Shown: piece by piece, positions 3,016 through 33,600 of the stretch
Layout of the letters: each line of letters begins with the position of its first letter
How positions within the stretch are numbered: position 1 is the first letter of the stretch
Virus record (IMG/VR): IMGVR_UViG_3300016722_000008
Span: 1 to 36,040 of that record
Length of the DNA: 36,040 nucleotides
Direction: 5' to 3' (one strand)
DNA from: a virus
Lineage: Duplodnaviria > Caudoviricetes
Made by a program: the position numbers and the translations under genes
The notes under the pieces: generated by a model
Told to the model about the DNA's origin: nothing
Databases searched by the model: none
The model's input: the letters and a program-made list of their open reading frames with translations, nothing else

Positions 3016-3566
3016 GCAGTGTCACTGCCGATCAGATCCAACAAATCGTTGGCGAAACCGCCCCCCGGTATGGCCTGCCGTCGGGCGTTGTTGCGGCCGT
3101 GGTCCAGGTCGAGTCCGGCGGCAACATCTGGGCCTGGAACCCTGAACCGAAATACCGCTGGTTCTGGGACGTGCGGACTAACCAGCCCTTTCGGCCGGTC
3201 ACGCCCGAGGAGCTTGCTTCCAAGATCCCTCCCAAGGATTTCAAAAGCTGCCGCCCTGACATTGATCGCGACGTCGAATGGTGGGGACAGCAAGCGTCCT
3301 GGGGCCTCATGCAGCTCATGGGTGCGGTGGCCCGGGAACGTGGCTTCACTGAAGATTTCCTGAACAGCCTGCATGATCCGGCCGCCAACATCGACGTCGG
3401 CTGCCGGCACCTGGCCGGCTACGTCAAACGCTATCTGCCGTCCTATGGCTGGGCCGGCGTGTTTCGCGCCTACAACGGCGGACCCTATGCCGCCGTGCAT
3501 AATTCCAATCCCGAGTATCCCGAGAAGATCCGTAGCGCTCTTGGGGGGAGTTTCCCCAATGCGTAA
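3003..3566 (+). CDS. Lytic transglycosylase (SLT-family) endolysin
   Basis: SLT motifs VQVESGG (catalytic Glu), GLMQL, NIDVGCRHL and AYNGG; SD GGAGG at 2993-2997. Confidence 0.9.
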   Translation: MSSFCSVTADQIQQIVGETAPRYGLPSGVVAAVVQVESGGNIWAWNPEPKYRWFWDVRTNQPFRPVTPEELASKIPPKDFKSCRPDIDRDVEWWGQQASWGLMQLMGAVARERGFTEDFLNSLHDPAANIDVGCRHLAGYVKRYLPSYGWAGVFRAYNGGPYAAVHNSNPEYPEKIRSALGGSFPNA

Positions 3567-3873: not shown

Positions 3874-4162
3874 GGCCGTCGTCACGGCCTACGCCAAATC
3901 AAAGACCACCTGGGGAGGCATGGGCCTGTATGGGCTCAACTTCCTGCTGGTGCTCATGTCGTCGGATAGGCCCCACACCATTTCCATCGGCTTTGATGGC
4001 GCTCCCCTTGTTTCGTTCCCACTGACCGGGCCAGTCCTGTTTGTCCTGGCCTCTGTCTGCCTGTGGTTGTGTCTCTATGGCCGGGGCGTGGCGGCCGGTC
4101 CCCTTTTTGACGTGCTATCCCAGGCCGCCGCGACGGCCCGGCAGGGCGAGGAAAAGCAGTGA
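3863..4162 (+). CDS. Two-TM holin-like membrane protein
   Basis: ATG 3863; SKTxW N-terminal motif, two hydrophobic segments and a C-terminal YGR..A.GP motif typical of small phage lysis-cassette membrane proteins. Confidence 0.65.
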   Translation: MDTKAVVTAYAKSKTTWGGMGLYGLNFLLVLMSSDRPHTISIGFDGAPLVSFPLTGPVLFVLASVCLWLCLYGRGVAAGPLFDVLSQAAATARQGEEKQ

Positions 4163-5067
4163 AAATCCTTTCGATTGACGGCGGCGGTATTCGGGGATTG
4201 CTCCCGGCGTTGGTCCTGGCCGAGTTTGAATCGCAAACAGGCCGACCCATCGCCAAATCCTTCGATCTGATTGCGGGCACCAGCACCGGCGGCATTCTCG
4301 CCCTGGGGCTGGCGGCCGGCATTCCGGCCATGCGTCTGGCCGAATTCTATCTGGAGCGGGGACCGGCCATTTTCAGCCGCTCGTTGAAAAAGCGGATTGA
4401 ATCCGTCGGCGGCCTGACGGACGAAATGTACGGCGCCGGCGAACTGGAGATCGCCCTGGTCGATCTGTTTGGCGACCGGACATTGTCCTCGGTCGAACCC
4501 CACGCCCATGCCCTGGCCGTGGCCTACGATATCGAAGCCAGGGAAACCATGTCATTTTGCTCCTGGGGAGGTGAAGACTTTCGGCTGGCCGATGTCGGCC
4601 GGGCGACAAGCGCCGCGCCCACCTATTTTGAACCGTTCATGCTTAAGAGCCTGAAAGGCGTGGCCATGCCCTGCATTGACGGCGGGGTGGTCGCCAACAA
4701 CCCGTCCATGATTGCTTATCTGTTGTGGGGCGCGGGGACGACGGATGCCAAGAACATCCGGCTTGTTTCTTTGGGGACCGGTCGCCGCGACACGCCGCTT
4801 CTCCTTTCGGATGCCAGGGGTTTCGGTCTGGCGCAATGGGCCCCCCATCTTGTGGACATCATGTTTTCCGGGTCGTCCGAACTGATCCACGAACAATGCG
4901 CCCGTCTGCTTGGGGAGAACTATCTCCGCCTGCAAGCCGATCTGCCCGAAGACGTTCCCATGGATGGCACCGACGCCAAGCATTTTGCCGTGCTCAAGCT
5001 GGCGGCCAAGCGGTTGGCGGCCAGCCCCGAGGCCTCCCGCGCCCTGGCCATAGTGAGAACCGCATAA
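4159..5067 (+). CDS. Patatin-like phospholipase
   Basis: Oxyanion motif DGGGIRG, nucleophile elbow GTSTG, SAAPTYF and catalytic DGG; GTGA and TAATG overlaps with both neighbours. Confidence 0.93.
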   Translation: MKILSIDGGGIRGLLPALVLAEFESQTGRPIAKSFDLIAGTSTGGILALGLAAGIPAMRLAEFYLERGPAIFSRSLKKRIESVGGLTDEMYGAGELEIALVDLFGDRTLSSVEPHAHALAVAYDIEARETMSFCSWGGEDFRLADVGRATSAAPTYFEPFMLKSLKGVAMPCIDGGVVANNPSMIAYLLWGAGTTDAKNIRLVSLGTGRRDTPLLLSDARGFGLAQWAPHLVDIMFSGSSELIHEQCARLLGENYLRLQADLPEDVPMDGTDAKHFAVLKLAAKRLAASPEASRALAIVRTA

Positions 5068-13370: not shown

Positions 13371-14822
13371 GTGATGTTTGGAACCTATCCGTATGTTGCG
13401 GGAGAGGTGTGGGCCGGAGTGCGCTACTCCGGCGACATTCAGGCCGGCGTTGAGCGGATAGGGTTGGTCATCCAGCAATTGCAGCTCCTCAAAAATCTGA
13501 ACATCCAGAACCTTCCTCTCTATCAGACTTCCCGTGGTTATGACGACGGATCACAGATCACGGTTTTCCGGCAAGGGAATGTCTACTCTGCGGCAGTGTA
13601 TGTCCCGCCAAAATCCACGATTAAAATACCAGCGTTAGAAAAAGGGCAGGTTTATTGGATTCCTGGATGCGTGGCGCGCTATGACGCAGCAGTTCTTTCT
13701 TCTCTCGCCAAGTCAGACGCCCTGCATTGGATAAATTCCATACCGACAGGCACACTTTCCAAAGAAGTTCTGCGCTATAGATCCGACGTTTCCTTGAGCG
13801 CAAGGCAGGCTTGCGGATTGCCGGTCATGCAAAGCATGCCAGAAGCAGGGATCACGCGAGATGGTGGTGTTTTCAAATGTTCTGGTGGGGTAAATTCCGG
13901 AATGTATCTTTCAAAGGAACATATGCCAGACGAGGCCATATTTTCCTTTTCCTGCGCATTTCGTCTGCATAAAAAACTCGAGTACGATTATACTTTTGAC
14001 GAGAAGGGCGTGCTCAACCCGGTTCGTCCGTATTATTTGAAAAAAAACAATGGAGGACAATGGACATGGGATTGCCCTGGTTCCTTGTCTCCTGTGATTG
14101 GTTGGGCTTCGCCACAATATTTTACAGCAGACTATGAAAAGGTCACCTTCCCATGGTCTCCCTGGAATGACGATTTTACGAAAAAGACTTCCGTCACCGG
14201 ACTCAAAGCTGTGGACATTGCTTGCGCTGATGCGCCGTTGCTCGCTGACAGTTCACCATATTGGGATAAAAAAGATCCACCCAATGCCTACCCATATCCC
14301 AAGGGTTTTATTGTTGGGATGCGTTTTTGTGGACTGTTTATATATAATGGGAATCAATTGTTATGCGGAAGAATAAATGACTTTACGAAACAGTATCAAC
14401 TGTCACCGATCATAACATCTGAAATATCACTGGGGCAATGGTTTCATGCCGTAGTGGTGCAAGGGAAGAACGGGACACTTAATCTTTTTCTGGCAAATGG
14501 CGCGGCCAAAGATACCACGCAATATACGACAATGAGTCAGATTCAAAGCATGACGCCGCCGACAGTTTATGACTCAAAATATGATTATGTATTTTTAGGA
14601 TATAATAGCTGGGATATAAATATATTGACGACGAATGAAAGGATCAGTCACTTCTCCATGAATCCGCAGATAGATATTTGTATTCCTCGATTTTACAGAC
14701 GCGATCTTACAAAGGCAGAAGCCTTATTGCTGCATGTCGAAGCGTTTGGAAAAGTTTTTATCGCGGATGATTTTGAACTTGGACCATTGGAAGCAACAGG
14801 TTTTTCCCCGGTAACGGTATGA
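13371..14822 (+). CDS. Tail-associated protein with probable LamG/concanavalin-like domain
   Basis: GC-richer N-terminal ~80 aa, then an AT-rich body; FSFSCAF and ISLGQWFHAVVV..GTLNLF..G...FYRRDLT resemble LamG folds. Confidence 0.55.
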   Translation: MMFGTYPYVAGEVWAGVRYSGDIQAGVERIGLVIQQLQLLKNLNIQNLPLYQTSRGYDDGSQITVFRQGNVYSAAVYVPPKSTIKIPALEKGQVYWIPGCVARYDAAVLSSLAKSDALHWINSIPTGTLSKEVLRYRSDVSLSARQACGLPVMQSMPEAGITRDGGVFKCSGGVNSGMYLSKEHMPDEAIFSFSCAFRLHKKLEYDYTFDEKGVLNPVRPYYLKKNNGGQWTWDCPGSLSPVIGWASPQYFTADYEKVTFPWSPWNDDFTKKTSVTGLKAVDIACADAPLLADSSPYWDKKDPPNAYPYPKGFIVGMRFCGLFIYNGNQLLCGRINDFTKQYQLSPIITSEISLGQWFHAVVVQGKNGTLNLFLANGAAKDTTQYTTMSQIQSMTPPTVYDSKYDYVFLGYNSWDINILTTNERISHFSMNPQIDICIPRFYRRDLTKAEALLLHVEAFGKVFIADDFELGPLEATGFSPVTV

Positions 14823-15403
14823 AAAAGAAATATCCTGTTTCCCTCCCTGTTCATTTTGCTGGCTTCCCACCGATGTTCAAGGTGACCTGCGGCGCGTCCA
14901 TTCCGTCTCCGTATAGCTATGGAAGCCGTGTCATACTGCATAGAACGCCATTATGTGGAATTGTTCAAGGAGGGTATGAAGAAGGAAAATCCCTTCCTGA
15001 TTTATCCATGATCTACAGCGACACCGGGCAGGATGGAAACTTTGACCTTAAACTCTCATTCTACGGATGGGGCACTTTTTACAAAGACAACGATGATGCG
15101 CCGTATTGTTCTCTTGAAATACGAAAAGGTATAAAAGTTGAAGCGCATGGTATTTCCAAAAAATTTGAGACACATGATATTTGGGAAACCCTTATCCCTG
15201 CCTCAACTGTTTTGACGGACAATCCCATTATAAAAAATATAGCGCTCCTCTATACAGAAAAATCATCAACGCCAGAACCAGCCGATGGATATGTCAGAGT
15301 CTTAAATAAATCAGACATATTTTCGCCATCTCTTTCTGGCGGCATCAGACTCAATGGGACGTTACAGCTCTCCGGCGAAGGTATTGTCTGGTTGAAGTCA
15401 TGA
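14819..15403 (+). CDS. Hypothetical protein (AT-rich tail module)
   Basis: 194-aa ORF with ATGA overlaps on both sides; no family recognised. Confidence 0.6.
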   Translation: MKKKYPVSLPVHFAGFPPMFKVTCGASIPSPYSYGSRVILHRTPLCGIVQGGYEEGKSLPDLSMIYSDTGQDGNFDLKLSFYGWGTFYKDNDDAPYCSLEIRKGIKVEAHGISKKFETHDIWETLIPASTVLTDNPIIKNIALLYTEKSSTPEPADGYVRVLNKSDIFSPSLSGGIRLNGTLQLSGEGIVWLKS

Positions 15404-16281
15404 GTGATCTTCTCATCTTTTACAACGAAAATGGGGAGATTACTTCTTCCGCAGCGGACCCTGCAACAAGACAGTTTTATGCTGATTACCTGCTTATTGA
15501 TAGGCCATTGGATGCTTTTGGCAGCCTGGAAGAAGTGGGGGGATGCGATTGGGATCCTGATGAATATGATTTTTTATTTTCGAACAAAAACACGCTTATT
15601 GGACTTTTTCGAGCTTGCGACATTCAAGCGCAGGAATCCCAACAGATAGCCACCTGGCAGGATAGCAGCGGATGCGGCAACGATATCGTTACCTTAACTG
15701 GAAATGTTGTATATTCAAATAATCTTGTAAAATTAACAACTGCAAAAGGAAATAGAGATATTACTTTTTCAAAAGATCCTGTGCAACCATTGAATAAAAA
15801 ATCAACGACATTTATTGAATTTGAGATAGACAAAATAGCATCAAACAAAGAAGTATTTCTCGTTGAAATACAAGCAGGATTTGTATGGATTGAATTTGAG
15901 TTTGGACATTCAAATGGTACTATAACTTTTTGTTTTAATGATATAGTAGATAACAATGGCTCAAATTATTATCCTGGTGATGTTCTAGATATAGACATAA
16001 CAAATAGCAGAATGTTTTTAACTGTTATTTGTAGTGAAGATAAAACAATATTTCGACTCAATCAGAATATTATAAAATCAATTGACATGCCACAGGTTGC
16101 ATGGAGCTGGCAGTCGGGCTTTTGGGTCTCTCCGACAATCGGGGGACGCATCTGGCACGAAGGAAAAGAATATGGAACGACGCTGAGCCTCGCGAATATT
16201 ATTTCTTTTTCGACAACGTTATCGGAAAGCGATTGCCTGAACATTGAATCTTTTCTCATGAAAAGATTTAGCAATGGCTAA
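15400..16281 (+). CDS. LamG/lectin-like putative receptor-binding protein
   Basis: IATWQDSSGCGND and C-terminal LSESDCLNIESFLMKRF match the ends of phage LamG-like domains; the central part is very AT-rich. Confidence 0.55.
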   Translation: MSDLLIFYNENGEITSSAADPATRQFYADYLLIDRPLDAFGSLEEVGGCDWDPDEYDFLFSNKNTLIGLFRACDIQAQESQQIATWQDSSGCGNDIVTLTGNVVYSNNLVKLTTAKGNRDITFSKDPVQPLNKKSTTFIEFEIDKIASNKEVFLVEIQAGFVWIEFEFGHSNGTITFCFNDIVDNNGSNYYPGDVLDIDITNSRMFLTVICSEDKTIFRLNQNIIKSIDMPQVAWSWQSGFWVSPTIGGRIWHEGKEYGTTLSLANIISFSTTLSESDCLNIESFLMKRFSNG

Positions 16282-17917
16282 CCTCCTTCAATATATACAG
16301 GCTCTTGAGCCTTATTCCGCTGACACGGTCGGAGACGGAACCGGAGTTCTGCCGCAGCCAACCGCTCAGGGGACAGGAACGTCTGGCGCGGTTGGCATTC
16401 CAGCTCTGCCCACGCTGCAGGGCGAGGGGAGCGCAAGCTGGCGGCCGTTTGGCCTCTGCATCCTTCCCTCTCTGCAAGGCACCGGAACGACGAACGGCTA
16501 CCACCCGGCCTGGGGAACGCTGCATCTCCCGGCCCCAACGCCAGAGGGGACAGCCCACACCCATATTGAATCAGTGGACTTCCTGCCGCTGCTTTTTTCC
16601 GAAAGCCACACCGGAGCCGCCGCAGAAGCAAGCCTTCCGTTACCTTCTCCCTACGCCTTGTCGGGGTATAACACACGAGGAAGCGGCCTCTGCGTCCTGC
16701 GCCTCCCCATTGTCTCCTCCTGGGCCTGCTCGCTTGAGAGCCCTCTCAATAACACGATTGCGGTCTCGCGGGTGGTTGCGCTTCTCAACCAGGGAAATGC
16801 CATCCTGAAAGCCCTCGCCGCGCAGCTTACCGAATACGATGCCGACAATGATGCAAAAGCAATTTCCGTCACCTACGCCGTTTCCCATCTCCTGACCTAT
16901 ACCAGCGACACGAGCGGCATCGGCGATAATTGGACCTGCGCCATCGCCACCTGGATGCGGGCCTTTGGCGACTGTGAAGATGGCGCGATTCTCATCCACG
17001 CCTTGCTCCTGGCCGCAGGCGTGCCGGCAGCCCGACTGCGTACGTGCTTTGGCACCGTTGGCGTGGATCGCACAGGGCATGCCTGGACGATCTACCAACG
17101 CGAAAGCGACTGTGAATGGATACCGCTGGAATGGACCGCCGGGCCGATTCCTTGGGACCGTACCGCCCAGGATATCAAGCGGATGCTCGATTTGACCGCC
17201 ACATACACGGGCGTCGAATATCTGCTGACAAGCTCCGACTTCTTTAAAATTGCAAGTCTTTCATATGCACGGTTGCTGATGGTCAACCATGCCCGGGCAT
17301 CGATTGCGGCATTGTTCCCCACAGCGTCCGGCAAGACGAATGTCTCGGCCTCGGCCTCCCTGCATGTCCTGTTGCCAACACTCACAGGCGCGGCCGGGGC
17401 CTGCGGCTCCATGTGTTCGCCGCTGCCACAGATCCTTGCCACAGGTTTGCAGGCCTCTGTGGGGTTCGGCGACTGCACGCTCTCCCATCCTGAAATTTCA
17501 GGATGCCCTGGCGCACAGGGTGTCTGCTCCATGGGCATGGATGTCTTGGGCTGCGGCGGCATTTCAGGCCGCTGTGCTGTGGCCGTTCCGTTCCCTCTGG
17601 CTGTCGCAACGGGAGGGCAGGCCTCGTCGGGACGTGGTGCGTGCACGATAGCCTTCGACGGCGCGGGACGCATGCTGGCCGGCCTGACCGGAGAGGGGGA
17701 TTGCGCCATGCCGCTGCCGCTTTTGCGGGGCACGGACCTCGCGTCCCTCGTCGGGCGCGGCAATTCCCGCATCCCATTGCCGACGGTGGCCGGGCAGGGC
17801 GGAGCGCTTTCTGACGGCAGGGGCCATTGCCGCATCCCCAGGCTGCGAGTGCGGGGCGCAGCCCATACCACGTCAACACCACACATCTGGGAGTTTGTTC
17901 CCGAGAGGTTGTCATGA
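16274..17917 (+). CDS. Tail/fibre protein with Gly-rich repeats and an inserted transglutaminase-like cysteine-peptidase domain
   Basis: LPxxxGxG-type repeats flank a central domain with GDCEDGAIL, GHAW and WIPLE (Cys-His-acid triad). Confidence 0.7.
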   Translation: MANLLQYIQALEPYSADTVGDGTGVLPQPTAQGTGTSGAVGIPALPTLQGEGSASWRPFGLCILPSLQGTGTTNGYHPAWGTLHLPAPTPEGTAHTHIESVDFLPLLFSESHTGAAAEASLPLPSPYALSGYNTRGSGLCVLRLPIVSSWACSLESPLNNTIAVSRVVALLNQGNAILKALAAQLTEYDADNDAKAISVTYAVSHLLTYTSDTSGIGDNWTCAIATWMRAFGDCEDGAILIHALLLAAGVPAARLRTCFGTVGVDRTGHAWTIYQRESDCEWIPLEWTAGPIPWDRTAQDIKRMLDLTATYTGVEYLLTSSDFFKIASLSYARLLMVNHARASIAALFPTASGKTNVSASASLHVLLPTLTGAAGACGSMCSPLPQILATGLQASVGFGDCTLSHPEISGCPGAQGVCSMGMDVLGCGGISGRCAVAVPFPLAVATGGQASSGRGACTIAFDGAGRMLAGLTGEGDCAMPLPLLRGTDLASLVGRGNSRIPLPTVAGQGGALSDGRGHCRIPRLRVRGAAHTTSTPHIWEFVPERLS

Positions 17918-24600: not shown

Positions 24601-27600
24601 CCGGTCAAGGAGGCCCGGCCGTCTTCACCGCAACCGGAACAGGCCACGGACAAGCCTCTTGGTGTCAACAATCAGGGCAACCAGGTCTTCGAAGACGAAC
24701 GCGGCAATCGTTTTGTGCGCGAAGGGAACGTCCGCATCGAGGCCCCGGTTTCGGTCCGACCGACCCGGGCCGGCGTGGTGGCCGAGGCGCATGGAGCGGA
24801 GCAGCTTCACCGGGACGGACACCGGGAATTTTTGACCAAGGACGAGTTGGCGAGGTTTGAGAAACCGGAAGCCTCGACACCGGCTGGCGAAGACATTATT
24901 TTCGACAAGGAAGACCAAGGAGCGCGCGATGCAGGAAGTGCACACCCTGACCGATCCCGACCGGATGTGGGACTGGAAGGCCCATCTGACCTGGCTCCTG
25001 GAGAACAAGCCCCAGGAGACCTGGGCAACGTTCCAGGCGAATCCGGACGAACTGAAGGAAGCCATCGACCGGAAGACACTGCAGTCCGCCAACGTCCAGT
25101 TCGGCCTCAAAGCCCGGAATCTCCCGGAGGACGCGATTCAGGAGGCGATGCTGGCGGTGGTCGCTCCGTCGGACGGCCCGGCCCTGAACGCGGAGAATCC
25201 GCCCGAGCCGCTGCCCCCGCAAAAGGAACACCGGATATGGGCGTGGTGGGAGGACCTGCCGCCCCGAAAGATCACGGTTCTTCCGGACGGGACCTATCGC
25301 GAGACCATAACCACCGCATAGCCCCCGACGACGTGCTGGTGCCCGGCGGCAACGCCACCCGGGCCAAGGCCAATCTCGCCGCTGTCCGGCTTCTCAAGGA
25401 GCTGGAGGCGCAAAACCGTCTCCCCACGCCCCAGGAACGCAAGGTTCTGGCCCAATTCTCGGGCTGGGGCTCCCTGGCCGAAGAGGTCTTCAAGGCCGAT
25501 TTCGAGAATCTCGCCAACCAGTATGGAGGCGAGGATCTGCCATATCACGCCCGCCTGCGCAATGAGGCGATCCTGGACAAGTACGCTGCCTGGAAGCGCA
25601 GGTACGGCGAACTCCATCCCAACATCGGCGGTCTCTTCTCCAAGGAAGAGTGGGACGCGGCCAAGCGGTCGACGTTAAACGCCCACTACACCGACCGGGA
25701 TGTGATCACGGCCATGTGGGACATGGTCCAGCATATGGGCTTTACCGGCGGCCAAGTGGTGGAGCCGGCCGCCGGCATCGGCCATTTCTTTGGCCTCATG
25801 CCCGAAAACCTGGCCGTCGCCTCCCACCTCAAGGGCGTGGAGCTGGATTCCGTCACCGGCCGGATGCTTGAAAAGCTCTATCCCGCCGCCGACATCCAGG
25901 TCACCGGATTCCAGGATGCCAAGCGCATGGGGAACAACACAGCCGATCTGGTCATCTCCAACGTTCCCTTCGGCGACTTCCCGGTCTACGACAAGGCCCA
26001 CAAGGACTATTCCGGCTGGAGCATCCACAACTACTTCCTGGCCAGGGCCCTGGACGTGGTGCGGCCCGGCGGCCTGGTCGCGGCCATCACCTCGCACTAC
26101 ACCATGGACACGACCCGGTGGGGCAGGGTCCGCGAGTACCTGGCCGGCAAGGCGGACCTGGTGGGCGCGATCCGCTTGCCCGGCACGGCCTTTGCCAAGA
26201 ACGCCGGCACCGACGTCACAACCGACATCCTGATCCTGCGCAAAAAGGACGGCCGGCCCTTTGAAGGCCAGCCCTGGCGGCAGGTGGAAAAGGTGGAGAC
26301 GCCCGAGGGACAGGCCGGGGTCAACGAATACTTCGTGGCCCATCCGGAAATGGTGCTCGGCAGGCATTCCCTGACCGGTTCCATGCACGGTGGCCTCGAA
26401 TACACGGTGCTGCCGGACAAGGCCCAGCCCCTTATCAAGCAGGTGCGGGAGGCCGTGGCACAGCTGCCCGTGGACATCATGGGCGAAGGGGCGGCCACCC
26501 AGCCGAAGCCGCTGCCCCAGGCCCTTGGCGAACGGGCCGACGCAGACATGCGGGAAGGGACCCTTGTCGTCCGGGACGGCAAGGTCTTTGCCGTGGAGGA
26601 CGGTCGGCTCTCCCGGCCGGAATGGCAGGACGGAAAGCTGGCCGAGTCCCGAACGGCCATCGCCCGCCAGTATGTCGGCGTCAAGACGGCCGCCCAGGAC
26701 TTGGTCCGGGCTATGCTGTCCGAAGAGGCGACCGATGCGGACATTGCCGCGAAACAGAACGAGCTTGGCCGGTTGTACGATGCCTTTGTCAAGAAGCACG
26801 GGCCGTTCCTCGACAACCGCAAGCTGACCTTTCTTCGCGATGACGTCGAATATCCCAACGTCCTGGCCCTGGAAAAGAAGGAAGAGCAAGTTGTCAGTGG
26901 TGACAAAAATGTGGTCGTCACCAAGGCCGACATCTTTACCAAGCGGACCATCCGGCCTTTTGCCGAGCCCAGGACGGCCGCCTCGGCCGAGGATGCCGTC
27001 AAGATAAGCCTGCTCTACCGGGGCAATGTGGACGCCGCCAAAATCGGCGAGCTGCTCGGCCTGCCGGAGGCCGAAGCCAGACGCCAGCTCCTGGAGACCG
27101 GGGCGGCTTATGAAAACCCGGAGACGGGGTTGCTCGAAACGCCGCAGGAATATCTGTCCGGCAACGTGCGCCAAAAGCTCCAGGTCGCCAGGGACAGCGC
27201 GGAAAGCAATCCGGACTACAAACGCAACCTGGATGCCCTGGAGGCGGTGCAGCCGCCCAAAAAGCCCGTCAGCCGCATCGACGCCCGCCTGGGCGCAACC
27301 TGGATTCCCGACAGCGTGGTGTCCGCCTTCATGGAGCGCATGGGCGTCCGTTGGGGCAAGGCGGTCCAGACGCGCACCCGGGCCGGCGAGGACGGCCTTT
27401 CCTCCTGGGACGTCAAGGGGTCCCTGACCCAGGAGGCCCAAAACCGCTGGACCGTGGGCGACACAAACCTCCTCGACATCCTTAAGGATTCGCTGAACCT
27501 CAAGCTGTCCAAGGCCTACAAGTACCTGCCGGACGGCAAGGGCGGCCGCGACCGCGTGGTGGACCAGGAAGGGACGCTGCTCGTTCAGGAAAAGCAGAAG

Positions 27601-30600
27601 GCCCTGCAGGAGGAGTTTCTCAAATTCGCCCGCGAGACGCCCAAGGTCGCCACGGAGTTGGAAAACCTCTACGACGAGCGGTTCGGCGGGCAGATCCCCC
27701 GCGAGTACAACATCCCGGACGTGGCCCATTATCCGGGCGCGGTCGAGACCATCACCCTGCGCGACCATCAGAAACGCGGGGTCTCGCGCGGGCTCCAGGA
27801 GAACACACTCTTCGCCCACGGCGTCGGGGCCGGCAAAACCTATCTGGTCACGACCCTGGCCATGGAGGCCCGCCGGCTCGGCACGGCCAAAAAGCCCATG
27901 ATCGTGGTCCAGGGCGCGACCCTGGAGCAGTTCGCCGGGGCCTTCAAACGGCTCTATCCGGCCGCCAACGTGCTGGCCCCCAACGCCGATGACCGGACCC
28001 GGGCCAACCGGCAGCGGCTCCTGTCCCAGATCGCCACGGGCGATTGGGACGCCGTGATTGTACCGCATTCGTTTTTCAACGGCCTGGCCATTTCCCCGGA
28101 GCGGGAAACGGCGTTTATCGAAGAGGACCTGGACGCCCTGCGGGCGGATCTGCGCGAAGCCCAGGCCGACAAGAGCCAGGATCGGGGCAGGAAGCCGCCA
28201 CGGGTCAAGCAGATCGAAAAGATGATGCTCAAGCGCGAGGCGCGACTCAAGGCCCTGCTCGACGCCCGCAAGGATGAGAACGTCTTTTTCGAGGACACGG
28301 GCGTGGACATGCTGGTGGTGGATGAGGCCCACGCCTACAAGCGCGGCGATTTCGTCACCAAGATGGACAACGTGAAGGGCCTGGACCGGGATTCCTCCCA
28401 GCGGTCCATGCAGCTCTTGCTCAAGTCCCGGTACATTGCCGAGAAGACCGGGGGCAAAAACGTCCACCTGGCCACCGGAACGCCGGTTTCCAACACCCTG
28501 GCCGAGCTGTGGACCGCTCTGCGCTACATCCGTCCGGACCTTCTGGAGCGGTTCAACGTCACACAGTTCGATGACTTCGCCTCGACCTTTTGCGCCACCA
28601 AGACCGACATCGAGGAGACGGCCACGGGCGACTACAAGCCCGTGACCCGGTTCAACCGCTACCAGAACCTGGGCGAACTCATCTCCATGTGGAAGGCCGG
28701 CGCGGACATCGTGCTGGCCGAAGACCTGGACTACATCAAGGATATTCCGAAGCTCAAAGGCGGCCGGCCCCAGGAAGTGTCCCTGGAGCGCAACCCGGAA
28801 CTGACCGGCTACATCCAGCACCTCAAGCAGTGGCGGATGGAGTGGGAACACCTGACCGGCAAGGAGAAGCGGGAGCAGTCCCATGTTCCGCTTCTCATCT
28901 ACAATCTGGCCCAAAAGGCCGCCCTGGACATGCGGCTGGTCAATCCGGAACTGGAGGAGGCCCCGGGCGGCAAGCTCGATGCGGCGGCCGGGGAGATCTT
29001 CAAGCGGTATCAGGCCCACCAGGACACCCGGGCGGCCCAGGCGGTTTTCAGCGATATCTACCAGTCGTCGGACAAGTCCTTCAATATCTGGAAGGACCTC
29101 AAGGGCAAGCTCGTGGCCAAGGGCATCCCGGCCAAAGAAATCGCCATCATCTACGACTACAACGAGAAGGCCCGGGAAAAGCTCTTTGAAGCGGTCAATG
29201 CCGGCGATGTCCGGGTGGTGATGGGGTCCACGGAAAAGCTCGGCGTGGGCGTCAACATCCAGGAGCGTCTGGTCGCCCTGCACCATTTGGCACCGCCGGT
29301 CAGGCCTATGGATTGGGAACAGCGAAACGGCCGCATCCGTCGCCAGGGCAACAGGTTCGACGAGGTGGAGGTCCTGGCCTACGGCGTGAAAAACACGCTC
29401 GACTCGGTCAGTTTCAATATTCTCCAGAACAAGCAGAAGTTCATCAACCAGCTCCTTCGCGGCGAGATCGACGGCGACGTGATGGAGAACCCCTTTGACG
29501 ACGTCCAGCTCTCCTTCGAGGATATGATGGCGGCCTTTTCCGGCAACCCGCTGGCCATGGAGCGGGTGAAGCTGGAGGGCCAGGTGCGGGACCTGGGCCG
29601 GCTGCGCCAGGCCTTCCAGGACGAAAAGGCCGGCCGCATCCGTCAGCTCGACCTTTTGCGCGGGAGCCGGATACCGGACATCGAAAAGAGCCTGGCCACA
29701 GCCGAAAAGGACGTGGATCGGCTGCGGGGTTCCTTCCCGGACCTCAAGGCGGAAACCTTTACGCTCAAGGACGGCACGTTCGAGAAGAAGGATTTCACCA
29801 GGAAGCTGACGGATTGGTACGACGGGATCAAGACCCGCCTGGAAAAGGAGACGGTGGGCAAGACCGTGGCCCACTACGAAGGGGTGCGCAGCGGCGGCAA
29901 ATTCGGCGGCGCGGTCACCTTCGAGACCGGCGGCCATGAGGTCAAAATCAAGGTTCGTCCCGTACCGGCCAGCCTGGTCGGTGCGGACTCCAACCGGGGG
30001 GATGGCCTGGCCAAGGTCACCGAGGCCACCCTGACCGGTTCCTTCACCGTCACGGCCCAAAACGGGGGAACCCTTTTCGAGCGCAATTTCGGCGCGCCCT
30101 CCGGATTTGTCCGCGCCTTCAACAACGGCCTCGAGGAGCTTTCCCGGGAGCCCGAGCGCATCAAGGGGCAGCTCGACCGGGCTCGGGAGTCGGCCGCGTC
30201 CCTGGAACGGCTCGTGGAGGAGAAGTTTTCCCGGGAAGAGGAATACAAGCAGGCGTCCGCCCGGTTGCGGGAAGTCGAGGAGGAACTGAAAAAGGCCAAG
30301 AACGAGGATCTGGCCGCAGCGGCTCAGGAAGCGGAGGGTGCCCAAGAAGAAGCCAGTGGCCCGGCGGCCCGCTTGGCCCGGGCCGAAGCCCGCACCGCCG
30401 ATATTTCCCCCGTGGCCCGGGCCGTGGCCGAGACGTTGCGCCAGGGCCTGACGCAGGTACCGGCCCTGCGCGGCATCGTGGACATCTACCAGAGCGAGGC
30501 CGATCTGCCGGCGGATCTGCGGCGCGAGATCAAGGAGGCGGGCGTATCGGGCAAATTCTACGGGGCCTATGACCCCGAAACCAAGCGCATTGTGCTCGTG

Positions 30601-33600
30601 GCCGGGAACATTCCCACGGAAAAGGCCGGGCAGACGGCGTTCGTCCAGGCGTTGTTGCGTCACGAGGGCCGGCACGGCGGCCTGGACCTGATTCTGGGCG
30701 GCCGGGAGGCACGTCAGGAGGCCATGCTGCAAGCCGCGCGCATCATGCCCAAGGAGGTTTCCCGCTGGCTGGAGAGAAACGGCCTTGATTCCACCCGCGC
30801 CACCCGCGCCGAAGCGGCCGAGGAACTCCTGGTTTCCTGGGCCCAAAACGGCACCATGCATCGCGCCCTCGACCGCCTGCTGACCAGGATCGCACAGTGG
30901 GCCCGCACCATCTTCCCGAATATCAAACTGACCAAGGCCGAGCTGCGGCAACTGCTTGCCCAGGCTGACAACTTTGTGGACGGCAAGGGCCTCGATTTCG
31001 TGGCTCCACTCGGCCAGTCGCTAACCGCCGCGCCGACTTTCGCGCGTGCTGCAACGCCCAACTTCGCACAACAGGTGGATGCTTATCTCGCCGGCCGGTT
31101 GCGGCCCCATGAAAGATTGGACCTTGGGGGGACGCCACCTGTGATCGGTCTTCTCGGCGGCCATGACCTGTCGTTGGAAATGACCCAGGCGAAAGCGAAC
31201 AAAATTCTCCGAGAGGAGGGGCAGGGAGGAAAACACGGGGTTCCAGCCGAGACACTCAAACAGCTTCCTCAGGCGTTGGAGCGTCCCGTGGTGGTGCTTC
31301 AGTCCGCGACCTGGGCCGATAGCCTGGTGGTGGTGACGGAACTCCCTCACCAGGGATCCTTCCTGGTGGCGGCCGTTCATCTCAACGTTCAGCAGGGGCG
31401 CGCGGAAATCAACGAAGTGGCCAGTGTGTATGCGAGGGGAACACAACCGTATTGGGTCGCCCAACAGATTCGTAACGGAAAGTTGCTGTACCGGGACAAA
31501 ACAAAAATCCCCGGTTGGCAGAGATCTTTCGGGCTGCAATTGCCCACAGAGATACCAACCGGGAACAGGAAGAAAATATTCACTGAGGTCGATCTCGTCA
31601 AGTACAAACAGGGGCTGCCGCCGAAGGGTGCTGGGCCTCGCTTCGCCCGGGCCGGCCAACTGACCGGCGTGCCGGAGGAACCGGAAAAGTTCACCCATTG
31701 GTTTAAAGACGCCACAACCGCCCATGTGCGTTCCATCCTGCCGGCCGTCCATGATTCGCTCAAAGAAACCGCCGTATTGGGCAAGATCCTGCGGTCGCCG
31801 GAATACTGGCAGCACCCAGTCCTTAAGCGCCTTTACGAGACCTTCCGTGACCGCACGGACCACGCCCACGAGATCCTGCACAAGGCCCTTGATGCCGGCG
31901 ACGGTTCGGGCCGCACGATCCTGGACGAGGCCAAGGCCATCCTCAAGAACCCGAAGCAGCGCGAGATACTTTCAGAAGGCGTGGACTACGCCGACGTCAA
32001 CGAGATTCAGCCCGAGGCCATGGAAACCTGGTTTGCCGACCACGGCGCGACCGAGGCCACCATCAATCTCTGGCGGACCATGCGGGAGCGGTATGACATG
32101 CTCCTGGACCAACGCCTGGAATCGTACCGCCGGCTCATGGACAAGGCGCGGGACACCTACGGGGCCAAGATCATCCGCCGTCTGGTCGACGCCGGCATCC
32201 CGTCCGCAGAGGCCAGGACCTTCGACGCGACCGAGTATCAGGCGGACAAGACCCTGTCCGAGGAGCTGGCGCCCTACGCTTCGGAAGTGGCCGACGTTGT
32301 TTTCAAAGCCCGCAAGGACGGCCTGACCATCAAGGACCAGCTCACGGACGTGCGGCTGGTCGGCGAGGACGGGGCGTCCTTTTCGCTCAAGGAAATGATC
32401 GAACGCATGGGCCAGATGCGCGGCTTCTACGCCCCACGCTTGCGCGAGACCGGCGACTATGTGGTGCGCGGCGAGCGCACCGGAACGGATGGAAAAATCG
32501 AGCGGTTCCGGGCGCACAAGGAATGGCGGGCCGGGGCGGAAAAGCTGCGGGCGAAGATGGCCCGGGCTGGTTGGGACATGGAGCCCGTCAGCAAAATCCC
32601 GAAACTGCCGGAGGCCACCCAAGGGCTTATCAAAGCGCTGGAACTGGCCAAGACGGTTGAATCCGCCGTCAACCATGTCGGCGAGGACGTGGACGCCGGG
32701 CTTGTCGAAGAACTGTTGGAGACCCTGGCCGATGAAGTCAAATCGCGTGGTTTTCGATCGCAATCCATCCGGCGCACAGGGCGTCATGGCGAGGTGGTTC
32801 AGGGTTATTTCAAGGACGCGATGGAACGGTTCACGCGCTATGCTGGTTCAACCGCCTACGGGCTGGCCAAGATGGACGCGGCCGGCAAGGCGGCCCGGGC
32901 GCTCTTCGGCAGTGCGGACATGCCGGGGATCGACATCAAAAAGGAGCGCGACGTTTATCGGCTGGCCGTGGACTATCTGGCTGAAAACCTGCGTAACGCC
33001 GAAGCCGGGGACCGGGTTTTCAGCCTGGCCAAGTCCGTCGCCTCGCTCAAATATCTGGGCCTGAATCCGCGTTCGGCCCTGGTCAACCTGTCCTCAATGG
33101 CCACCAGCGTACCGGCGGCGCTTCATGCCTACGCCCTGGAAGGGAAGGGGGGCTGGGCCCGGGTCGGCCGCACCATAGCCCGGTCCATGGGTGACTACCT
33201 GGGGGTGATGACGGGGAAATGGGGCCGGTTCACCCCGGAGGAAAAAGCGTTTCTGACCGCTATCCGTAAAGAATCCCTGGACGATCCGCAGTTCGCCCGC
33301 GAGGCGTTGTCCACGTACCGCGACACGGCCGGGAAAAGCTGGTCCTGGCTCATGGGCAAATCGCTGGCCCTGTTCGGCGCGACAGAACAGCTTAACCGGG
33401 GGGCGACGCTCCTGGCCGCTTATCGTCTGGCCCGGTGGGCCGGAGCCGATCATGAGGCCGCCATGGCCCGGGCCAGGGAGACGTCCGACCGGGCCCATGG
33501 CGTGTATGATCGTTCCACCCAGCCGGTCTGGACCTGGGGCACGAGCGCCGGGGCGCGGCTGGGCCAGTCCTGGTACGTCTACAAAAAGTACGGCCACAAC

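Follow-up and report, generated by a model that had tools for sequence, protein, structure and literature searches.

In the type III toxin-antitoxin systems (ToxIN, CptIN and TenpIN), a ribonuclease (RNase) is kept in check by a small structured RNA that binds to it; the antitoxin is encoded as a repeat array, located upstream of the toxin and on the same strand, and is cut by the toxin into pseudoknots. Here, we are concerned with a virus of the Caudoviricetes (IMG/VR record IMGVR_UViG_3300016722_000008), whose whole record of 36,040 bases we refer to as “the window”, and with a hairpin RNA unit that is located antisense to the tail of a MuF-C domain, within the open reading frame (ORF) of a giant polyvalent protein gene. 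The logic that we propose for this unit, i.e. an RNA that restrains a ribonuclease, is shared with the type III systems, while the layout is different: the unit is a single antisense hairpin, downstream of the domain and inside the frame of the toxin itself, with its binding being proposed; there is no array of tandem repeats upstream on the same strand, and tandem copies occur in only 4 of the 48 related loci that are compared below.

The MuF polymorphic toxins (Jamet et al. 2017, PMC5576092) are likewise virion proteins of temperate phages, in which toxin-like domains can be swapped and against which the producer needs protection, but their immunity is provided by a separate small protein gene located downstream, whereas the candidate here is an RNA within an internal cassette. 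The domain itself, its His/Ser signature, its virion context and its mosaic shuffling correspond to the PBECR/MuF-C domains of polyvalent proteins (Iyer et al. 2017, PMC5512222), the main text of that paper making no mention of antisense, small or noncoding RNA, of overlapping genes or of TnpV. STnc6030 of prophage BTP1 (Owen et al. 2020, PMC7067206) is also an RNA that is expressed in the lysogen, antisense to virion and injection genes, but it is 786 nt long, it is proposed to pair with mRNA, and the passages of that paper that deal with it make no mention of a domain-linked family of compact hairpins. While the logic of the RNA antitoxin and of the toxin-immunity cassette is known, the antisense in-frame layout is unreported: a literature search, in which a prior description may have been missed as bioRxiv supplements and most subscription papers were outside its scope, has found no description of the RNA family or of the nested gene that we describe below. 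What is new is the covariation at the level of the MuF-C family, the count of orphan RNA copies, the clean gain or loss of the cassette, and the connection of the unit with transcription data and a small RNA, EcOnc36, that are already in the literature. The internal RNase-like domains of polyvalent proteins leave no room for a downstream immunity gene, and a conserved antisense RNA in each cassette is a testable answer to how the producer tolerates them.

The giant protein matches MuF_C (PF18819) at residues 3198-3294, with 78.7 bits against a cut-off of 27.6 (E 4e-22); both the His and the Ser of the MuF-C/PBECR signature are present, and the domain is a predicted ribonuclease. Across 150 aligned MuF-C domains, the His is kept in 140 and a Ser or Thr in all. 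PBECR domains group with colicin-like RNases, and the members that have been studied mostly cut tRNA (preprint 10.64898/2026.08.28.747851). A sequence search has found no relative with a solved structure, and a scan of viral contigs with this single protein has returned no relative of the domain.

An earlier note on this DNA, made from the letters alone, had proposed that every effector domain of the giant protein carries an embedded cognate regulator, starting from two internal promoters that share the -10 element TATTTT and a 17-bp spacing, one next to a nested protein gene and the other next to a structured RNA. Both sites, TCGACA-17-TATTTT on the plus strand and TTGACG-17-TATTTT on the minus strand, are present; promoter-like sites of such type are found three times in 18 kb against 2.1 ± 1.4 in shuffles, i.e. 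at chance level, and therefore the case rests on relatives. The shared TATTTT has been rejected as a signal of design: the closest relatives of the nested gene read AATTCT, TATTTC or nothing at this position, and the -10 element of the RNA family varies (TATAAT, TATACT, TACACT, TATTCT and others). The two promoters are unrelated, while both embedded units are real.

The structured RNA had been placed inside the RNase-fold domain; the hairpin is real, but it sits at codons ~3291-3325, in the tail that extends past the Pfam match. In the window, it folds at a z-score of -3.75. A profile of the MuF-C core that ends before the tail has retrieved 125 domain records, 52 of them non-redundant; 48 of these 52 loci carry the loop motif, 16 having come from protein searches and 32 from a scan with the DNA motif. 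An antisense promoter with a score of at least 9 is present in 43 of the 48 tails, against 5 of 192 antisense control windows and none of the 48 sense strands, and a U tract follows the hairpin in 44/48 tails, against 31/137 controls. Compared to synonymous recoding, the median folding z-score is -2.55, with 34 of the 48 loci below -2. On inspection, the remaining four tails also have a promoter and a hairpin, with frameshifts in two of them, a variant stem in the third and a different loop in the fourth, and the hairpin unit thus occurs in 52/52 of the non-redundant MuF-C tails examined.

The pairing is conserved where the sequence is not: the outer arms, at 29% identity between loci, pair with their own partner at -23.9 kcal/mol against -11.6 kcal/mol when swapped, and the own arm is the best partner in 29/48 loci and among the top three in 43/48. 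The inner 4-bp stem is paired, and the 7-nt loop stands on a short stem, in all 48. In the alignment of a subfamily of 13 sequences, six pairs are changed on both sides, a number that none of 500 shuffles reaches, in a control that ignores kinship. At the protein level, the inner stem-loop is read as the motif GLQLP: its CAA and TTG codons are kept in 16/16 of the loci found by protein searches, though locally uncommon; a V at motif position 2 goes together with F or Y at position 4 (7/7); and the amino-acid variants among the 150 domains (GVQFP, VLQLH, ELQLL, ELQSL and TLQLR) are those that preserve the pairing of the stem. Because the variants follow base pairing, the GLQLP protein motif is largely the shadow of an RNA stem, which matters for the annotation of domains in general; by the same comparisons, the RNA unit is conserved across phyla with compensatory changes.

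By itself, the bare loop motif has been discarded as a diagnostic of the family, since 58 of its 125 matches are away from a MuF-C core, most of them chance-like. Searched against Rfam, the window has no match at the gathering score and two chance-level matches at E<=10, with no match to the CRISPR-repeat families of that database. Second hairpins in tandem, in the reading frame after the first RNA, are seen at loci L049, L101, L123 and L209, as well as L050 and L077; by our count, extra copies in tandem are present in 4/48 loci. A related hairpin with the loop GGC-GAAUAAA-GCC and a promoter pattern occurs in seven large phage contigs that have no MuF-C core (L366, L367 and L370-L374).

The RNA is also coupled to the domain. 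The two closest relatives (G001 and G002) read FAR-EET-RFAR where the window reads FAR-(197 codons)-RFAR, the cassette being absent as a block and the antisense RNA unit leaving with it; in the third relative (G003), the slot is occupied by an LPD3 domain, and in the fourth by a MuF-C domain that is 42% identical. This comparison of sequences supports an in-frame insertion or deletion of the MuF-C cassette, together with its RNA, between FAR motifs; the in-frame shuffling that had been predicted for every domain thus holds for the MuF-C slot and not as a rule. The LPD3 cassette of G003 (L024:2023-2574) carries its own, different antisense hairpin, with a z-score of -2.9 against base shuffles and a weak promoter; the different hairpin in the same slot is counted in favour of coupling. 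A scan for the promoter together with the loop has given 70 non-redundant RNAs, 41 of which have been counted after 29 with short flanks were set aside, and 32/41 adjoin an intact MuF-C core, one of them as a tandem copy. Mu gp30, the domain of which has been called inactive (Iyer et al. 2017, PMC5512222), has neither the tail nor the RNA unit. The coupling is supported by the loss of the whole block from G001 and G002, by the 32 of 41 RNAs found beside the core and by Mu gp30, which lacks both; the expected co-occurrence across homologues is borne out, each unit travelling with its own domain. In a phylum-wide search, MuF-C is present in 5/401 genomes, too few for a co-occurrence test. Intergenic stand-alone copies of the RNA are seen at the motif matches L102, L109, L137, L168, L265, L280 and L296; two stand-alone copies are located near what we take to be the end of a tRNA, and the two copies of L137 lie behind a presumably TIR-like gene.

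A homologous hairpin unit with the same loop is located antisense in the MuF-C tail of ECs1242, in prophage Sp5 of E. coli O157:H7 Sakai, and we have computed the start of its RNA at 1301471-1301473. Position 1301472 appears as an antisense primary start in ECs1242 in published differential RNA sequencing (dRNA-seq) data (Sy et al. 2020, PMC7547250, Dataset S1), with an enrichment of 24.07, the highest of the four ECs1242 rows, and the sequence upstream of this start matches; the cells were grown as a lysogen without induction, with a subpopulation in the lytic cycle (PMC7547250). The expression in lysogens that had been anticipated holds, in this way, for the Sakai relative, while the transcription of the window RNA is predicted by analogy. 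A look-up has returned no RNA run for the window, and four DNA assemblies compared with it have yielded short pieces and no informative variant, results that weigh neither for nor against expression. The small RNA EcOnc36 (Tree et al. 2014, PMC4104026, Table S2), at 1301433-1301515 on the same strand, is antisense within ECs1242 at the MuF-C tail and overlaps the 5′ half of the Sakai RNA, and with it the homologous hairpin; it is Hfq-bound in 5/5 sets of cross-linking and analysis of cDNA (CRAC) and is listed without a northern blot. In the tables of that paper, it is catalogued only as an Hfq peak, with no family, structure, domain link or function, and its target is listed as unknown in a 2021 review (PMC7873438); the family described here gives this orphan small RNA of Shiga-toxin (Stx) phages relatives and a hypothesis. 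The cloning oligonucleotide of AsxR (PMC4104026, supplement) has nine bases that are complementary to the stem-loop of EcOnc36, probably by chance.

The second embedded unit is a gene that is nested in the +1 frame of the giant gene. It had been located at the boundary of the methylase and the helicase, while it actually occupies codons ~1101-1231, in the linker 5′ of the methylase, i.e. upstream of the entire methylase-helicase module. We have surveyed 19 viral loci with a related methylase, using a profile built from their +1-frame proteins: a nested member is found upstream of the methylase in 17/19 loci, the profile search having returned none in L005 and L019, and the profile also recovers loci outside its training set (L011 with 53.6 bits, L013/L014 with E of about 1e-3). 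The +1 frame is stop-free over 80 codons in 12/17 upstream windows, against 30/269 windows within the enzyme. The nested protein is 90, 88 and 81% identical to those of three close relatives, compared to 80, 79 and 55% for the host frame, and about half of the substitutions occur at third positions of the nested frame; the L003 methylase control, being out of register, has been excluded from this comparison. Since the nested frame is better conserved than the host frame and shows this third-position bias, it is, on these sequence counts, under selection: another case of a gene within a gene, concealed by the annotation of the giant frame. Its promoter is poorly conserved, with a score of at least 7 on our own weight matrix in 5/14 nested genes, against 5/168 control windows, and with TATTTT lost in the three closest relatives.

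As for its identity, 2 of 12 nested proteins reach the cut-off of the TnpV profile PF14198 (27 bits; L009 and L015), 4/12 match it weakly, and so do 3 of 13 further homologues (E 0.007-0.13); the predicted structures share a helix layout, with predicted local distance difference test scores (pLDDT) of 86.7 and 81.2. The protein of the window itself has no Pfam match, and the profile-profile comparison (hhalign) of its subfamily with the TnpV-like set is not significant; a fold search has given no match with E<=0.001 in the PDB or among viral models, and no usable match in the Atlas. We thus call it TnpV-like, with a tentative link to TnpV that runs only through intermediate sequences, rather than a member of TnpV. 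It is likely a partner of the methylase-helicase; a role as an inhibitor is one candidate option, and nothing points to inhibition rather than partnership. At L011 and L013/L014, another stretch has been inserted next to the methylase, and the TnpV-like gene still persists on the far side of it, 540-900 nt upstream of the methylase match. Just 5′ of the nested gene, at L008 ~470-620 and L015 ~2480-2620, the host frame has a Ser/Pro/Thr-rich stretch that may be the shadow of an antisense element.

For the antisense RNA, the reading that we favour, with a probability that we put just short of even, is that of a decoy antitoxin, likely binding and restraining the predicted MuF-C ribonuclease. The cassette carries, antisense in its own tail codons, a conserved promoter-hairpin-terminator unit; the hairpin RNA likely binds the predicted RNase as a substrate-like decoy and would restrain it, RNase and RNA would move together as a single in-frame module, and the RNA would protect the lysogen or the producer cell, with lone RNA copies acting as orphan immunity genes against the MuF-C domains of other phages. 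The unit, the conservation of its RNA, its co-transfer with the cassette and the transcription of a relative in a lysogen culture are established; RNase activity, RNA-protein binding, cell protection and orphan immunity are what we infer. The 7-nt loop is fixed, with one free base, while the stems vary freely, a pattern that would fit recognition by a protein better than base pairing. The retention of the predicted catalytic residues, the grouping of PBECR domains with colicin-like RNases, the lack of tail and RNA in Mu gp30 and the different hairpin of the LPD3 cassette are also counted for an antitoxin. Loop positions 3-5 are dominated by UUG, with UCG (8), GCG (1) and GUA (2) among the MuF-C-linked variants; the cases are few and mirror the sense codon. 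The broader proposal, in which in-frame RNase cassettes, each with a cognate antisense, anticodon-like decoy RNA, are shuffled as toxin-antitoxin units, lone RNAs confer orphan immunity against the injected RNases of rival phages, and EcOnc36 is the first member to have been sighted, is possible and rather doubtful.

Several observations weigh against the decoy. The canonical anticodon loop has U33 and a purine at position 37; the loop AAUUGNA has A as its second base, i.e. no U33, and its sixth base (position 37) is free, and CGA is one step from CAA anyway. The window RNA is weak against synonymous recoding (z -1.79, with 3/60 recoded sequences as good), the promoter scores come from our own weight matrix, and the loop motif itself served to find 32 of the 48 loci, with related loci being non-independent. 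Ten aligned MuF-C domains without the His retain the motif. The EcOnc36 peak reaches 43 nt beyond the mapped start on its upstream side, and its binding to Hfq fits a base-pairing small RNA; no integrase or repressor is found among the scanned ORFs of the window, and decoy binding, toxicity and neutralisation are steps that we infer. Moreover, 9/41 RNAs lack a MuF-C core, six of them intergenic, so that the RNA is kept without the domain; these orphans would suit orphan immunity as well as a function of the RNA that is independent of the domain. On the latter reading, the phage RNA acts in trans on a target in the host, either as a decoy of a defence or RNA-binding protein or as a regulator that depends on Hfq, and it rides in the MuF-C tail as a passenger, with no interaction between the two; this reading is unlikely, though it draws on much of the same evidence: the six intergenic orphans have a promoter, 8/9 orphans keep the hairpin and the U tract, and the tandem copies, the cross-linking of EcOnc36 to Hfq and the motif of the His-less domains are all compatible with it. 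It is opposed by the presence of the unit in every MuF-C tail examined, which is tight for a passenger, by the free mid-loop base, which speaks against a pairing seed, and by the hosts (Enterobacteria, Pasteurella, Desulfovibrionaceae and others), which differ in their defence systems. If the RNA does act on the host, it represents a widespread family of phage small RNAs that is absent from Rfam.

The position of the RNA opposite the giant gene, together with the transcription of its Sakai relative in a lysogen culture, would also suit a cis-antisense silencer of the giant mRNA, or an RNA that excludes superinfection in the manner of STnc6030, an RNA that blocks superinfection and is encoded opposite a gene for DNA injection (PMC7067206); we find this improbable, since an antisense RNA is complementary whatever its sequence and needs neither a loop conserved across phyla nor a link to a single domain, and since the RNA is a closed hairpin of ~70 nt rather than 786 nt, with orphan copies that have no target in cis. 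That the RNA is instead a cofactor or a processed substrate of MuF-C, the pair forming an active ribonucleoprotein, would draw on the same tight coupling, on tandem copies that could be processing arrays and on the His-less domains, whose retained RNA fits an RNA-binding role; it is very unlikely, as an injected domain would need the RNA to be packaged alongside, and constitutive expression with the late genes off would suit protection better. The full model of the earlier note, in which every effector domain has an embedded inhibitor and the nested protein inhibits the methylase-helicase, overlaps with the decoy, so that their probabilities do not add up; it is, in our estimate, a weak candidate. 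Two domains do have embedded units that travel along, the LPD3 replacement cassette has a hairpin of its own, and Sakai ECs1242 has given no TnpV-like match, its phi24B relative having no methylase among the domains listed (bioRxiv 10.64898/2026.04.10.717836). However, the two promoters have nothing in common, that of the nested gene is missing in close relatives, and the DarB-like methylase-helicase is described as a module against restriction and is no evident toxin (Iyer 2017, PMC5512222). In a scan of the whole giant ORF, inspected by eye, neither the helicase nor the putative metallopeptidase, nor the N- and C-terminal parts, showed a further unit of promoter, hairpin and U tract; among the other promoter-like sites listed, some scoring 8.6-9.6, none was seen with a hairpin and a U tract after it. 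With two units among several domains, the pairing appears domain-specific, and a rule for all domains is not supported. That protein coding and base composition have produced both units as by-products would agree with the chance frequency of the two promoters in the window; this is hardly credible, as the mapped start and the covariation have refuted it for the RNA family, while synonymous recoding, arm pairing, the conservation of the nested frame and its presence in 17/19 loci also speak against it.

Table 1. Features of the window that are discussed in the text, with the antisense RNA unit and its cassette listed first.
Feature	Position	Strand	Remarks
Predicted small hairpin RNA, ~69 nt, ending in a U tract	31498..31566	-	Start assigned by comparison with that mapped in Sakai
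Inner stem-loop GGGC-AAUUGNA-GCCC	31531..31545	-	Conserved; coding strand reads GLQLP
Antisense promoter TTGACG-17-TATTTT	31573..31601	-	Score at least 9 in 43/48 relatives, against 5/192 control windows
Upstream FAR-coding junction of the cassette	31039..31047	+	
MuF-C cassette	31048..31638	+	Three codons instead in the two closest relatives; LPD3 cassette in the third
Downstream FAR-coding junction of the cassette	31642..31650	+	
Pfam MuF_C (PF18819) match	31219..31509	+	Predicted catalytic His 31234-31236, Ser 31423-31425
Promoter-like TCGACA-17-TATTTT of the nested gene	24874..24902	+	Weakly conserved
Shine-Dalgarno-like AAGGAG	24917..24922	+	Retained in L001 and L002
Nested +1-frame gene, 130 aa, helical, TnpV-like	24929..25321	+	ATG ORF
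DarB-like methylase-helicase module	25318..30387	+	N6 methylase ~aa 1353-1541; helicase ~aa 2042-2318
Giant polyvalent virion-module gene, 4386 aa	21628..34788	+	DarB-like methylase-SNF2 helicase, putative zincin-type peptidase, MuF-C

Upstream of the giant gene, the window has genes for terminase, portal, capsid and tail-adaptor proteins. The giant protein matches the Pfam families N6_Mtase (1353-1541), ResIII (2042-2240) and SNF2, and it is of the DarB-like type, i.e. an N6 methylase fused to an SNF2 helicase in a virion module (phrog_10089, E 0); such modules are regarded as anti-restriction modules rather than evident toxins (Iyer 2017, PMC5512222). The putative zincin-type peptidase is recognised from the motif HEGRH, read directly from the sequence of the giant gene. 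The counterpart of the giant protein in phi24B was detected in virions and is proposed to be ejected (bioRxiv 10.64898/2026.04.10.717836); from its gene context, the giant protein of the present phage is presumably packaged in its virion as well, and the relatives, of which G001 is a provirus, suggest that the phage is capable of lysogeny.

Amid the virion genes, the region 13371-16300 forms an island of low GC content (0.39-0.46 against ~0.63) with three ORFs (483, 194 and 293 aa), which have no Pfam, PHROG or PADLOC match; it is a candidate moron or defence island. It adjoins a transglutaminase-like protein at 16274-17917 (Pfam Transglut_core, E 4e-5). At 4159-5067, flanked by the terminase and portal genes, a patatin-like phospholipase matches the phospholipase effector models of PADLOC (E 3e-65). 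Opposite the methylase-helicase, at 25675-30951 on the minus strand, there is an open frame of 1758 codons, which is probably a shadow of codon bias.

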